This document shows, one piece after another, positions 2,605 to 35,882 of a stretch of DNA of 48,355 nt. The stretch spans positions 1 through 48,355 of the forward strand of contig JBHIAE010000023.1 of NCBI GenBank assembly GCA_046758445.1, read 5' to 3'. This stretch comes from Candidatus Thorarchaeota archaeon. Its GTDB lineage: Archaea > Asgardarchaeota > Thorarchaeia > Thorarchaeales > Thorarchaeaceae. Numbering within the stretch: the stretch's first letter is position 1; the number at the start of each line of letters is the position of its first letter. The position numbers were made by a program, and so were the translations under genes. A model generated the notes under the pieces. The model worked only from the letters and a program-made list of their open reading frames with translations. It did not search any database and was not told the origin of the DNA.

Positions 2605-3618
2605 ATGAGTCTTGGTGGACTTCTACAGCGCGTCAATGCAATGGAATCACAGAAAAGGGGAAAAGGCGGCCTACTTTCTGCAAGACTAGATTCCGGGAGG
2701 CTGAATGTGCTGTCCAAGCGTCGCTCTGGAAAGACCCGTACGAGGCGCATGTCAGAGCAGGCATACTTGGACAGGGTATGTGATTTGAGCAGGCGCGGGT
2801 CGATGGACGCCATTGCTGAACTCATGAAAGGATACTGGAAAGACAAGAAGGCGCATCCATGGCATCGATTGTACAAGATACTCGACAATGAATGGAAGAG
2901 GACACATGAGAAGGACTCTGTCACTGAGAAGCTGATGCTGCTTAGGGAAGGAGTGTTCGGGGCACTCGGAATTCTCTCGCTCAGCCTGCCTTTGAACACA
3001 CCCACAGAAAGAATCCTACAGGTTCTGACTCGTGCAAAGAGCTGGAAGGAGGGTAGGCGAAACGTCAGGACCGAGTGTGCAAAGATTGTTTCGGATATGA
3101 TATCTTCAAGAGATGTCGCACACTTGATTCCCTCCGCGCTCCAAAGGGACGGATATGGATTCTTGACCGCGGACCTCTCAGAGGCACTCCTAGAAGACTT
3201 AAGGAGAGCGGAACCAAAGGCACGAAAGGGCAGTGTAAGCCTAGGGCGCCTGGCAAAGTCAGTCTTGGGTCGTCGCCTCCTAGAGGAACAAATGATTCAC
3301 GAGAAGAAGATTCCCGAGAAGGATCCTCGCTTCAGCCCTTTGTCTCAGGCATACGACCAGTTGCTCCTGAAGATGGAGTTGGAGGAAACGTCGGCCTTGC
3401 CAAGAAACACCCTCCAAATAACTCTCAATGGTCAGATTGTGCAGGACATCGCAGAAGCCAGATACTCCAGATATTCGACGGCAGCACAGGAGGGCGTGCA
3501 ATCTTCTCTCACTGAGTACTTAAAGGCAAACCAGAAGAAGAAGAGGCGTTCACCAGTCAAGAAGAAGAAACCGAGCCGCGGGCGCAAGAAGAGGTCGACC
3601 AAGGGAGGCAAGAAGTAG
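2605..3618 (+). CDS. Hypothetical basic protein with C-terminal PIP-box-like motif and Lys/Arg tail
   Basis: 337-aa ORF ending QSSLTEYL-KANQKKKRRSPVKKKKPSRGRKKRSTKGGKK. Confidence 0.75.
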   Translation: MSLGGLLQRVNAMESQKRGKGGLLSARLDSGRLNVLSKRRSGKTRTRRMSEQAYLDRVCDLSRRGSMDAIAELMKGYWKDKKAHPWHRLYKILDNEWKRTHEKDSVTEKLMLLREGVFGALGILSLSLPLNTPTERILQVLTRAKSWKEGRRNVRTECAKIVSDMISSRDVAHLIPSALQRDGYGFLTADLSEALLEDLRRAEPKARKGSVSLGRLAKSVLGRRLLEEQMIHEKKIPEKDPRFSPLSQAYDQLLLKMELEETSALPRNTLQITLNGQIVQDIAEARYSRYSTAAQEGVQSSLTEYLKANQKKKRRSPVKKKKPSRGRKKRSTKGGKK

Positions 3619-8646: not shown

Positions 8647-8946
8647 TCACCTTGGCTTTTTCTTGCGACTTCTGGCGGGCTTCAGAAAGTCAGTCAGTGA
8701 GCTCTGTTGGATCTGACCCAGCTTCCAGCCCCCGCCCTCAGGGTCTCTCTCCACGACGTTCTCCCGTTCCATGTTACGGAGGTGATAGAGGACGGTCCCG
8801 GCAGTCACTCGTACCTGACCGGCAATCTCTGACACTGAGCACCACTTGTCCGTGTTGAGTACTTGGATGATCTCGCTTCGTGTAGCAAGTCCTCTCCTGA
8901 CATTGCGAATCCAATGCAAGTACGCTCTTCGGTCGATGCTCAGCAT
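8647..8946 (-). CDS. Winged-HTH (ArsR-like) protein with C-terminal PIP box/PIP-degron-like motif
   Basis: SVSEIAGQVRVTAGTVLYHLRNMERENVV HTH; ends QSSLTDFLKPARSRKKKPR. Confidence 0.85.
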   Translation of the reverse strand: MLSIDRRAYLHWIRNVRRGLATRSEIIQVLNTDKWCSVSEIAGQVRVTAGTVLYHLRNMERENVVERDPEGGGWKLGQIQQSSLTDFLKPARSRKKKPR

Positions 8947-8996
8947 GTCCTACCCAAGAACGGAAGAACCCAAGCTGAGATTTATGTTTCTCTTAC

Positions 8997-9284
8997 TCAT
9001 GAACGTCTGATGCCGACAAGGGCAAGGAATGCAGCCGGCTCGCTCCCCTCAGTGATTGGTCTTATTCTGTACTTTGGGTACTTGTGACTCAGCCTGGCAG
9101 CCACTCGTGTTCCCATCAGCTTTTTGAAGAGCTGTGCTTTTGCCCCTCTCCAGAGATAGACTGTCTTCTCATCGTGGTCTATGAATACCAAGACCTTCTC
9201 AGAGGCTATGACAGCAGCGCCGGCTTCAGTCTCTGTCATTTTGGCTTCTGAGTCTATCTCAAAGGCTTCTACCATTTCTAACAC
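8997..9284 (-). CDS. Single-domain gelsolin-family protein (Asgard ProGel/1DGel-like)
   Basis: VLVFID..TVYLWRGAKA..K..G..VA..L..ITEGSEPAAFLAL matches the gelsolin repeat signature (WxG, EGxEPxxF). Confidence 0.88.
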   Translation of the reverse strand: MLEMVEAFEIDSEAKMTETEAGAAVIASEKVLVFIDHDEKTVYLWRGAKAQLFKKLMGTRVAARLSHKYPKYRIRPITEGSEPAAFLALVGIRRS

Positions 9285-9466
9285 ACCTTCATGAGTCTTC
9301 GTTCAAAGATGCAGACTCTCTTATGATACTTTTCCAAAGGAATGCACCGCTATTATCAGCTGTGTGTGCGTGATGCTGAGCCATCGTTCGCTAGGCTGAA
9401 CCTGAGTTGGTCCCACTTAACTACAAAAGGCCATTGTTCTAAGACGGTGGAGGACGTGAAGTACAT

Positions 9467-10192
9467 TTGGCCGATGACATTCCTTCAAGTGTCAAGTTCA
9501 TTGACCGGGAGCGACGCAGGATAGAACTGGTGATAAACGACGTCACGCTGTCATTCCCACTAAATGCGATTCCCGATCCACTCTACCTAGCAATGGCCAC
9601 AGTGTATGATGGGGACGAGGATCCCAACTGTAAGCTCTTGAAGGCCTATTATGATACTGTCTTGCAACCAACTGTATGCACGTCTGACCCAGCAAGTATC
9701 TTTCATTCAGCCACCGCGATCAAGACGACCCATCTGACGCTAACCGACGAGGAGATCGAGAACCAGATTGAAGACATTGAGGGGGAGTTTCTGTCATTTC
9801 AAGGACGTTCCTACGAGGACACTCTTGCGGAGAGGATCGAACTATATCGGAGAATCTACCTTGACGACTCCAAGATAGACCGATTCAGACTCGGAGCGGC
9901 AGAATTGTATGGGGACGTCACATACGGGAACATCCGACGAGACCCCCGTGTAGTAATCAATTTCCAGTGGCACAATCCCCGAAAAGACGAGCACAGAGCC
10001 TATCAGGTCAACAGTATTGTAGAGATTGTGTTCCCTGGAGATCCATTTTACAGGTTTATGAGATCCATGCGGTCACTATTCGTCCGCCGTTTCATCGACT
10101 TGCGGGCTTCTGAGTATCTGTGTGCCTACAAGTTCCACGTGTGTGAAACAAAGGACAAGAGCTTATCAGCTCGGCTAGGTTTCGTTCCATGA
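9467..10192 (+). CDS. Putative FMN-binding split-barrel (PNPOx-like) protein
   Basis: TYGNIRRDPRVVINF..AYQVNSIVEIV resembles archaeal PNPOx-like proteins. Confidence 0.55.
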   Translation: MADDIPSSVKFIDRERRRIELVINDVTLSFPLNAIPDPLYLAMATVYDGDEDPNCKLLKAYYDTVLQPTVCTSDPASIFHSATAIKTTHLTLTDEEIENQIEDIEGEFLSFQGRSYEDTLAERIELYRRIYLDDSKIDRFRLGAAELYGDVTYGNIRRDPRVVINFQWHNPRKDEHRAYQVNSIVEIVFPGDPFYRFMRSMRSLFVRRFIDLRASEYLCAYKFHVCETKDKSLSARLGFVP

Positions 10193-10193
10193 C

Positions 10194-12719
10194 CTAGTAG
10201 TCCGTCAGTTTCAGAAGCTTCTCAGGCAACTCCTCTACATCTCCTATGTCCAAGACAACTCCATGAGACTTCTTGGCAAGACTGTCTGCCGCCCTTACGT
10301 CATACGATTCCTTTGGTACAAGGATGATGAGTTTGATCTCATGGTGTTTCATCTTCTCTGCCAGCCTTTCACACTCTCTCTGGTCACTAAGAAATGCGTC
10401 TGTGGCGAAGATGCAGATTCGTTCCTTCGCCCTTGTCTGCTCGAAATTCTCCAGAGCCCACTGGAGTGATACACGGCCTCCTGTTCCACCACCTGCTCGA
10501 ACGTCCAGTAGATCAGACGCGACCTTTTCGACGGACGCCGACTTCTCGTCGACGCGCTTCACAATGTGGCTCACACTGTCGAAGAGGATAACTCCAAAAT
10601 CATCCTTCTGAACTCCGTATAGACCAGCCATGACCGAAATGCTGAGCATCCCTAGCTTGTTTGGAGAGTCCATGGACCCTGATTTGTCAAGAGCCCAGAC
10701 GAACGCACGGTGACCTTGATAGGTTTCACAGATGAGGAAGTCATCCACATTAAGTACGTTGAAGTCAACCCTGCCTTGTGAGAGCAATGAGTCAATGGTT
10801 TCCTCTAAGTCAATCAGATCGATATCATCACCAATCCTGAATGGCCTCACAGCCGTAGATTGCTGAATTCCTCCCAGCATTGACGACCCCATGGTAGCTC
10901 TTGCATACCTCTTTCCAAGGTCAATCAGCAGTCTCTTGGCTATATCTCGAAGTTTCTCCTTGATGTCCTCAGGTAATGCGTCTCTATACGCGTACCAAAT
11001 CTTCACAATGTTTGTGGCAGGTCCAACTAGAAGCCCTCCGAAGACCAAGTCAGTACGGCTGTCGTCAGTCGTTCCAGCACCAGCAGCCGGGGAACTGTAT
11101 GCATATTGTCTGCGTCCAGACCGCGAGTCAATTCCTAGAGCGGCCCCAAGGTTCTCATGAGCTATGGCCCCAAGTGCCGATTGATTCTCCATGTTTGTCG
11201 CTAGGTTTCCCAGTTCCCTCAACTGCTTGGTCGTAAGTTTCGCTGACGATATCAGATTGTGTAGTCTCTCAAAGTCCTCGACACCTGACTCAATCAGTGC
11301 TTTCGCAACTCTATAGGAGGGATTGAGCAACTCCAGAATCTCATCTTCTGACATTCCAAGGCTTTCGCCCGCCTTACATATTCCCTCTATCGACGGCACA
11401 ACATCCTGTCTTGAAAGCTCCCTGACAGTTTCCCTTAGATGTGACTTTGTGGCAGACCTAGCTATTGCCGCATCCGCCAGCTTCTGCTTTGCCTTCTCCC
11501 AACTACTTCTGGGAACTCCATCAGCAACTGCATCATCTAACGCCGACAGGCTTCTTATCATCTGTTTCAAGTAGTCAGCTGGAGAGGACCTTGCATCCGC
11601 GTCATGCACAGTATTCTGGGTCTTCTTCTCCAACAGACTCTTCCAACTGTCTGAATCACGCGACGTATCAGCGAGCTGACGGAAGTCCACGTTGGAAGAT
11701 GCTCCTTCGTCATACTGTCTGTCGTACTCGCTTAACAAGTCATCTAAGAGGTTCTTCTCTGTATGTTGTTGTATTCTCTCCGAAAACTCAGCGGCGTCTC
11801 CCAATTGATAGTGCCGCGCAGCATTCTGAATGTGGTTCCTGATGTGTTTGGGGAGCCTGTCGAGATGTCCTGCATAGTCTGACAAGTCCGCAAGATTTCT
11901 GAGGGCATCCTGAAGCATCTTGTCCATTAGTTCTCTCTGAGCCTTCTTCAGAGCCTTGATGTCCTCAATATGGCGAAGGGCCCGAGATGCTGTCGCAGGG
12001 TCTCTGCTGGCAAGCTGTTTGAAGTCACCCTCGATTCCCTCATCACTTCTTAGCCCACGTGCGGCAAGGCTTTCCGCTGCATTTGGAGAGTTGCAGATCT
12101 GGTCAAGAACTCCCAAGGTCCTAGCATTCTGGATGTCACGCGAGGATAGGCTTCCCATATCCTCAATCAATTCTGACGAGGTCTCCAGTTTCAGCTCTCT
12201 GTTGTTAGTGAGACCTCGAAAGACGATATCCCCGTCCGTCAAATAGTCAGTAGCTGCATTGTAGAGCCTCTTGTCTTTCCGGGCTCGAAGCTTCTGCAGG
12301 TACTCGTACCCCGCCTGTACCTTCTTCCTGACAATCTTGCTAGCTAGTTCTTGTTCACGACGAATCTGGTCCATAACGGCCTGTAGTGCTGCGGTTTCGG
12401 GTTTGACGTCTTTCGCGGGCAGGGGCTGCTCCTTCTTGATTTCCCTTTCCTTATCCCTTCCTAGCACTATGTCTTCAGCGATTGTCCTTGCGAGCTCCTG
12501 ATCACTAGGATACGTAGTTCTGACAGCGGCATCAACAAAGTCGTCCAGAGTCAGATGGCCATTCCTGAAGTAACGGGCTGATAGAAGTTGTGGGATGGCC
12601 TGGGTCTGTCGAACACTTGGTTTTACACGTATCTCAGTCTGCGCCCTCATTCTCTTCACAAATTCGTGAGCGAAGTGGACTGTGTTGCTTGGCTGTGGAC
12701 TGATCCTTGGAGCAGCCAT
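10194..12719 (-). CDS. VWA-domain protein (CoxE/ViaA-like) with N-terminal AAA-lid-like segment
   Basis: MIDAS LDKSGSM, GGGT, ATDA; RPFRIGDDIDLIDLEETI pre-VWA motif. Confidence 0.88.
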   Translation of the reverse strand: MAAPRISPQPSNTVHFAHEFVKRMRAQTEIRVKPSVRQTQAIPQLLSARYFRNGHLTLDDFVDAAVRTTYPSDQELARTIAEDIVLGRDKEREIKKEQPLPAKDVKPETAALQAVMDQIRREQELASKIVRKKVQAGYEYLQKLRARKDKRLYNAATDYLTDGDIVFRGLTNNRELKLETSSELIEDMGSLSSRDIQNARTLGVLDQICNSPNAAESLAARGLRSDEGIEGDFKQLASRDPATASRALRHIEDIKALKKAQRELMDKMLQDALRNLADLSDYAGHLDRLPKHIRNHIQNAARHYQLGDAAEFSERIQQHTEKNLLDDLLSEYDRQYDEGASSNVDFRQLADTSRDSDSWKSLLEKKTQNTVHDADARSSPADYLKQMIRSLSALDDAVADGVPRSSWEKAKQKLADAAIARSATKSHLRETVRELSRQDVVPSIEGICKAGESLGMSEDEILELLNPSYRVAKALIESGVEDFERLHNLISSAKLTTKQLRELGNLATNMENQSALGAIAHENLGAALGIDSRSGRRQYAYSSPAAGAGTTDDSRTDLVFGGLLVGPATNIVKIWYAYRDALPEDIKEKLRDIAKRLLIDLGKRYARATMGSSMLGGIQQSTAVRPFRIGDDIDLIDLEETIDSLLSQGRVDFNVLNVDDFLICETYQGHRAFVWALDKSGSMDSPNKLGMLSISVMAGLYGVQKDDFGVILFDSVSHIVKRVDEKSASVEKVASDLLDVRAGGGTGGRVSLQWALENFEQTRAKERICIFATDAFLSDQRECERLAEKMKHHEIKLIILVPKESYDVRAADSLAKKSHGVVLDIGDVEELPEKLLKLTDY

Positions 12720-34780: not shown

Positions 34781-35882
34781 CTACATGAAATCCACGAGTG
34801 TTGATTGAGATGCATGTTCGCTTAACCCTGAAACCTTCACACCAATCAGCCGCACATACCTATCTGGGTTTCTCTTACGATCGAACAAATCTATGGCAAG
34901 CTGACTGAGCTTCTCTGGATCATTGGTATCAACCGGAATCGACCTGCTCCGTTGGATGGTCGTATAGTCGGCATATCGAAGCTTTATGGTGACGGTCCGG
35001 AACCTGAGTGCCTTCTGATGTAATCTCTCACCAATACGTCGGCACATCTTGCTAATGGTGTTGTGAAGAAAGTTCGTCGCCTCGGGCTCAACGTCTTCCA
35101 TGAACGTATAGTCCTTACTCATTGACTTTCGGACTCTGGGTCCGTTGTCTATCAGCGGTCTTTCATCGATTCCTCTGGCACGGTCATGAATCCACTTGGC
35201 TCCTCTTCCCATGATTGGCATAAGGTCGACAACCGTCATTGATTGGAGCTGGCCAAGAGTCTCTATCCCGTATCGAGCCAGTCTTGCAGCAGTCTTCTTG
35301 CCCACGCCATTGATTGCATCTACACTCAGTGGTCTGAGAAAAGCCTGCACATCATCCGGGTCTAGACCAACAACAGTGATTCCCAAGGGTTTGTTCATCC
35401 CAGTCGCAACCTTGGCTACAGCCATATTGGGAGCCACACCAATAGAGCAGGGCAGTCTGGTTCTCCGCTTCACCTCCCTCTGGATCATGAGTGCGAGTTC
35501 TCTTGGGCTCTCGTACTCCTGTACAAGTTCAGTCACTTCGATGTAGGCCTCATCTATGCTCGCCCGTCGGACTCTCCGTCCGTCAGAGTGATCTCTGAGA
35601 ACCTCCATTACCTCAGTGGAAGCCTCAATGTAGCTTGAGAAGTCGCCGGGAACAAAGACAGCTTCCGGACACAATCTATACGCCTTGGAAACCGGCATTC
35701 CGGAATGGATGCCGTGGTCTCTTGCCTCATATGAGGCTGCTCTCACTACACCTCTTCCGTGGCCCCCCTTCGGATCATGACCGACACATACTGGCTTGCC
35801 AGCCAAGTCCGGGTAGTTTCTATACTGTTCAACGGCGGCGAAAAAAGGCGTCCATATCCACATGCATAATCCATCTATTCAC
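34781..35882 (-). CDS. dinB: DNA polymerase IV (Y family), interrupted by one extra T at 35841-35846
   Basis: N-terminal VNRWIMHVDMDAFF lies in a different frame from AAVEQ..ASYEAR..SIDEAY..KPLG. C-terminal PIP box QSTLVDFM. Confidence 0.93.

Follow-up and report, generated by a model that had tools for sequence, protein, structure and literature searches.

The window, i.e. the whole stretch of 48,355 nt that we analysed, comes from a Candidatus Thorarchaeota archaeon and encodes on its reverse strand two small adjacent genes: a single-domain gelsolin (ProGel) and a protein of 99 residues with a winged helix-turn-helix fold, hereafter the wHTH protein (Table 1). The DNA may come from the metagenome of a hydrothermal-vent study, represented by three DNA runs. 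The original prediction had described the latter as a winged-helix regulator whose open reading frame, at 8647-8946 (-), ends in QSSLTDFL followed by KPARSRKKKPR (8706-8650). Both the translation and the Pfam match to HTH_5 (ArsR), with an E-value of 8.8e-8 and 32.4 bits for a cut-off of 22, agree with this description.

Table 1. Features of the wHTH-ProGel locus, in positions of the window.
Feature	Position	Strand	Evidence
wHTH protein gene (99 aa; putative PIP box and basic tail)	8647..8946	-	ORF list and translation; stop codon 8647-8649
ArsR-type winged helix-turn-helix core, residues 22-66	8749..8883	-	Pfam HTH_5
Putative PIP box QSSLTDFL, residues 81-88	8683..8706	-	Conservation in 76 tails, wing spacing, complex model
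Poly-basic tail KPARSRKKKPR, residues 89-99	8650..8682	-	At least 4 K/R after the box in 68/76 tails
ProGel, single-domain gelsolin (92 aa; start codon ATG at 9275)	8997..9275	-	Pfam Gelsolin 8.4e-5; PDB 7C2F chain B
Promoter-like element GGAAAAGTATCATAAGAG upstream of ProGel	9318..9335	-	Recurs across genera

The AlphaFold2 model of the wHTH protein, built with 42 homologues as input, has a mean pLDDT of 86. It consists of helices at residues 6-30, 38-42 and 49-61 and of wing strands at 65-67 and 74-76, where the folded core stops. Residues 81-99 lie outside this core, in blocks with a pLDDT of 68 and 64, and the lower-confidence tail includes a short helix at 84-88. When we compared the model with the PDB using Foldseek, we retrieved only generic winged-helix regulators (IclR, PapI, CzrA), none with an E-value of 1e-3 or lower, and no NCBIfam family scored above its cut-off. 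The recognition helix is strongly conserved among the 42 homologues (T51, Y54, H55, L56 and N58-E62). A metal-sensing ArsR/SmtB identity is not supported: the metalloregulator family NF033788 scores 29 bits for a cut-off of 55, and the single cysteine of the protein, C36, varies in the alignment.

Two other genes lie close to the pair. The first, at 9467-10192 (+), is divergent from ProGel and encodes a protein of 241 residues with a weak PNPOx-like match; it is usually found beside the pair. The second, at 10194-12719 (-), encodes a VWA-type protein of 841 residues, and in several loci the VWA protein occurs with a MoxR AAA partner.

The C-terminal box and its conservation

The PIP motif is defined as Q-x-x-[LIMV]-x-x-[FYW]-[FYWL...] (PMC4929162, PMC6881253), and QSSLTDFL satisfies it. 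We scanned the 3544 likely genes of the same genome for the strict pattern in the last 25 residues and found it in six proteins, against seven for the reversed control. The bare pattern is thus not beyond chance, and the proteome scan suggested with the original prediction revealed no enrichment at C-termini. It is the conservation among homologues that places the box of the wHTH protein above chance. Q81 and L84 are invariant in the alignment of 42 homologues. We then pooled database homologues, representatives of clusters at 50% identity and genomic loci into a set of 76 distinct tails. All of them have Q at position 1 of the box and L or I at position 4; an aromatic residue occupies position 7 in 97% and a hydrophobic one position 8 in about 95%, while positions 2, 3, 5 and 6 are variable. 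The spacing between the tryptophan of the wing and the glutamine of the box is six residues in 76 of 79 tails. In 68/76 tails, the stretch of 12 residues past the box includes four or more K/R, in no fixed register, and a few family members have no tail or an acidic one (loci L060-L063 and L065). Judged from these sequences, the PIP box of the wHTH protein looks real. Our search of the literature for an archaeal PIP-tailed ArsR or winged-helix protein found no description of one. We file the protein as a putative member of the class of PIP-box clients, with an unusual, non-enzymatic cargo.

The genome encodes one PCNA (contig C24; 253 aa, with the domains PCNA_N and PCNA_C). C-terminal PIP boxes are found in its FEN1 (QSSLTDFF), NreA (QTKVTDFFD) and DinB (QSTLVDFM), and the box of the wHTH protein is nearly identical to the C-terminus of FEN1 (QSSLTDFL versus QSSLTDFF). 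The whole proteome has five TD-type matches to the PIP pattern, three of which are C-terminal: those of FEN1, NreA and the wHTH protein. When 30 genomes of the family are compared, the C-terminus of FEN1 reads QSSL[T/S]DFF, TD being present in 16 of them and SD in 11. Hence, the wHTH protein carries what appears to be the standard strong PIP box of the lineage.

The DinB named above is a Y-family polymerase (DinB/Dpo4-type, 360 aa) and is encoded in the window at 34781-35863 (-). Two further proteins have related motifs. A protein of 337 residues without Pfam or NCBIfam family, at 2605-3618 (+), has QSSLTEYL followed by a poly-basic tail of 30 residues; this protein and the wHTH protein, 5 kb apart, are the only ones in the genome to pair the PIP pattern with a strongly basic flank. 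Elsewhere in the genome (contig C4, 18143-19096 (-), locus L004), a Lrp/AsnC-type regulator of 317 residues carries QISLEEWF at a distance of 15 residues from the C-terminus, which may be a chance match.

We modelled residues 66-99 of the wHTH protein, with their homologue alignment, in complex with the PCNA of the same genome (14-row alignment). The score was 0.62 in three runs out of three, against 0.01 for the best of three controls, a pass that shows likeness rather than binding and may be memory, because many PIP-PCNA complexes have been solved. Of 80 solved complexes, 58 attain the mark used for this score, as do 2 of 110 mismatched pairs. At least 78% of the contacts agree between the runs, and the pLDDT of the partner is at least 54. 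Residues 78-89 of the wHTH protein contact PCNA residues 40, 43-47, 124-128, 226-227 and 243-250. The pocket of human PCNA comprises residues 40-44, the IDCL and residues 230-235 and 251-253 (PMC6881253); in the model, the contacts correspond to the canonical pocket, the IDCL and the C-terminal tail of PCNA. The basic tail had no confident placement.

The formal match to a PIP degron and the ubiquitin machinery

The canonical PIP degron combines a PIP box with TD at positions 5-6 and K/R at +4 (PMC6881253). The end of the wHTH protein fits Q-x-x-L-T-D-F-[L]-x-x-x-R. It has TD at positions 5-6 and Arg at +4 and deviates only by Leu at position 8, so that the pattern match claimed in the original prediction was confirmed formally. 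That prediction had gone further, and seen in this match a possible archaeal forerunner of the CRL4-Cdt2 degron, i.e. of PCNA-dependent, replication-coupled proteolysis. The conservation of the two degron features in the family is of little help to this proposal. TD occurs in 12 of the 76 distinct tails, and all three degron features combined in eight. The prediction was to fall if TD and the Arg at +4 were not conserved, and half of this holds, since TD is not. The basic residue at +4 did recur (53/76 tails), as one would expect from a degron, but +3, +5 and +6 are about as often basic (43, 47 and 61 tails, respectively). Judged from these tails, the +4 residue belongs to a generally poly-basic stretch that has no fixed register. 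In addition, TD is the norm in stable clients, namely FEN1 (16 of 30 genomes) and NreA. It is known to strengthen PCNA binding and, alone, does not cause degradation (PMC6881253). The fallback offered at the outset, in which TD is no more than a means to high PCNA affinity, agrees with the data.

We then searched for the machinery that a degron of this type involves. In the genome, which is 92.7% complete, searches that lack a positive control retrieved no cullin, CPSF_A (DDB1) or zf-RING_2; ubiquitin and UQ_con (E2) were not found in it either. For E2 there is a positive control, because 141 of 201 Asgard genomes, from nearly every sampled family, have a UQ_con match over the cut-off. In the family of the window, it was matched in one of 43 genomes, weakly (E 3e-5). 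Two other Asgard families (f17 and f20) also have few UQ_con matches or none. Cullin was over the cut-off in 0/201 Asgard genomes, again in a search without positive control. Among the components named in the prediction, only WD40 proteins were found in the genome. They could be counted for the degron, although their presence is uninformative because WD40 matches are also found in Thermus, Thermotoga and Methanosarcina. Since the lineage appears to be without ubiquitin machinery, the likeness of the wHTH tail to a eukaryotic destruction signal would be coincidental. The degron reading is close to refuted, and we regard a forerunner of CRL4-Cdt2-type proteolysis at this locus as hardly credible.

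Distribution of the gene and its pairing with ProGel

We identified 41 homologues of the wHTH protein with E-values between 1e-20 and 1e-53, and every named one is from Thorarchaeota. The gene is present in one copy per genome in 32 of the 43 genomes of the family. Four near-complete genomes of the family encode ProGel and have no wHTH gene downstream of it, which argues that the wHTH protein is dispensable and that its link with ProGel is not obligatory. The gene is a lineage-specific accessory that was lost in some genera. A scan of viral contigs revealed no relative. Eight or more other Asgard families have weaker homologues (E 1e-9 to 1e-18; loci L066-L085), and at none of these loci is ProGel a neighbour.

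The distant homologues have a conserved end, W-x-L-T-G-x-G-Q-Q-x-L, mostly without the aromatic pair and the basic tail. Q-x-x-L could therefore be structural and independent of PCNA. This brings in another explanation: a plain small ArsR-like regulator of the ProGel operon, where Q-x-x-L-x-x-F-L would be a structural element, or one for dimerisation or another partner, the tail would be a DNA-binding arm, and PCNA would have no role. The fixed spacing between box and wing is consistent with such a regulator, as are the lack of enrichment of the bare motif at C-termini and the position of the gene beside its likely target, which is typical of small regulators. However, the box lies outside the confident core of the fold (pLDDT 64-68) and is near-identical to the PIP box of FEN1 in the same genome and family. 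The conservation of the aromatic residue at position 7 in the tails of the Thor family is also at odds with it, and the docking model passes whereas all controls score 0.01 or less. Finally, full PIP patterns are found in three other Asgard families (QRLIDKYL, QQTIKKWL and QEEIDSYF). We consider a plain regulator unlikely. We favour a lineage-specific, dispensable and basic ArsR-type wHTH protein that is probably tethered to PCNA by its C-terminal PIP box. The conserved PIP motif, the FEN1-like box and a docking model past its controls lend support in silico to the original idea of a PCNA-tethered DNA-binding regulator.

The product of the upstream gene matches PDB 7C2F chain B, the Thor ProGel bound to actin, with an E-value of 9e-48 over 91 residues. 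ProGel is a single-domain gelsolin that binds and bundles actin, and the paper that describes it mentions neither its gene neighbours nor PCNA (PMC7444086). In 29 of the 30 family loci, which come from many genera, ProGel lies immediately upstream of the wHTH gene on the same strand. The spacers between the two genes range from 13 to 90 nt at 21 loci and share only a faint GAAAAC..TTAG-like element. Further upstream, the pattern GAAAA-N(4-6)-[TC]ATAAG recurs across genera about 45-65 nt before the start of ProGel. It occurs in 34 of 2567 upstream regions of the genome, and is thus not a generic TATA word. We rejected this element as an operator of the wHTH protein, as its form GAAAA-N-TCATAAG persists at ProGel loci that have no wHTH gene; for the same reason, it is probably the promoter of ProGel. 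A scan of 8900-9500 for inverted repeats retrieved only one weak pair of 9 nt. Across this interval, the 21 spacers and the regions upstream of ProGel, we found no conserved palindrome or operator that could be the DNA target of the wHTH protein. A scan for sigma-70 promoters and terminators is uninformative for an archaeon.

The wHTH protein may be co-expressed with ProGel or regulate it. One could go further and see in the gene pair a module by which Thor archaea tie their actin cytoskeleton to DNA replication: the clamp-tethered wHTH protein would ride on, or read, replicating DNA and would control or physically contact the actin-bundling ProGel. We regard such a module as very doubtful. 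If it were real, the coupling would be a primitive link between cell cycle and cytoskeleton in a relative of the ancestor of eukaryotes, and the ProGel-wHTH pair is a concrete candidate for a coupling between replication and cytoskeleton.

Predicted tethering to the clamp and known systems

For the tethered wHTH protein that we favour, we infer binding to PCNA and to DNA along the following lines. The PIP box would dock on the front face of the homotrimeric PCNA, in the hydrophobic pocket below the interdomain connector loop, where the protein would compete with FEN1, NreA and DinB or sit beside them. Competition with FEN1 for the pockets is to be expected because the two boxes are equivalent. 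Since the linker is only six residues long, the fold would have to sit tight against the face of the clamp. The winged helix and the basic tail would thereby be held on clamp-loaded DNA, either replicating or under repair. The basic flank probably strengthens binding to the acidic clamp, contacts DNA, or both: the pI is 5.2 for PCNA and 10.6 for the wHTH protein, and positive flanks increase the affinity of PIP boxes, by orders of magnitude in p21 (PMC6881253). TD and the basic +4 residue would then reflect the strong-PIP habit of the lineage together with a basic flank of generic type, rather than a signal for degradation.

A tight interaction of this type could also serve to block the clamp. 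As in p21 or TIP, the wHTH protein would occupy the pockets of PCNA and restrain FEN1, polymerases or repair factors, and its winged helix would serve to bring it to DNA. The key residues of its PIP box are identical to those of FEN1, and the gain in affinity seen with basic flanks in p21 (PMC6881253) suits a blocker, as does a dispensable and lineage-restricted gene. TIP, a small archaeal inhibitor of PCNA, provides a precedent (PMC4929162). Against this, the conserved recognition helix points to more than the mere occupancy of the clamp, namely to a specific target, either nucleic acid or protein. We find a clamp blocker distinctly unlikely, and continue with a protein that is predicted to be tethered to PCNA.

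Most of what is known of archaeal PCNA concerns its role as a platform for enzymes. Its non-core interactome is poorly charted, and the non-core clients in a 2016 review are NucS, NreA/B and TIP (PMC4929162). In Asgard archaea, to our knowledge, this non-core part is essentially unexplored. If our reading is true, the wHTH protein offers a simple and testable example of a regulator-like protein that a FEN1-grade PIP box tethers to the clamp. The presence of a perfect-looking PIP degron in an Asgard family that lacks E2 would also imply that TD and a basic flank are an affinity feature that predates CRL4-Cdt2 and is independent of it.

Several known systems resemble parts of this arrangement. 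The wHTH protein shares with the ArsR/SmtB metalloregulators the winged-helix fold and the match to HTH_5, but it has the PIP tail in place of the C-terminal dimerisation helix, and its metalloregulator score is below the cut-off. In the late transcription of phage T4, gp33 and gp55 are tethered to the gp45 sliding clamp by short C-terminal peptides. Here only the concept is alike, as the proteins and the clamp are unrelated to the wHTH protein and PCNA. The likeness to the CRL4-Cdt2 degron of Cdt1, p21 and Set8 is a formal match of TD at positions 5-6 and a basic +4 in the protein of the window; the wHTH family differs in having no conserved degron residues and Leu at position 8, and the parts of the ligase were not found. 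The C-terminal region of p21Cip1 is like that of the wHTH protein in having a PIP box with TD and strongly basic flanks, which in p21 give a very high affinity for the clamp (PMC6881253). The wHTH protein has neither the CDK-inhibitor domain of p21 nor homology to it, and p21 is a substrate of CRL4-Cdt2, a machinery that we did not find here. TIP, from Thermococcales, is also a small, lineage-restricted and non-enzymatic protein, and it is thought to use a PIP-like motif on PCNA (PMC4929162); it has no sequence relation to the wHTH protein and lacks a winged-helix DNA-binding domain. Finally, the archaeal clients with C-terminal PIP boxes (FEN1, NreA, DinB/Dpo4 and NucS) have, like the wHTH protein, a box of the form Q-x-x-L-x-x-aromatic-hydrophobic in a flexible tail, for the same predicted pocket (PMC4929162). 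In contrast to these clients, the wHTH protein does not end with its box but continues into a poly-basic tail; it has a linker of only six residues and, as its cargo, a stand-alone ArsR-type winged helix of 80 residues rather than an enzyme.
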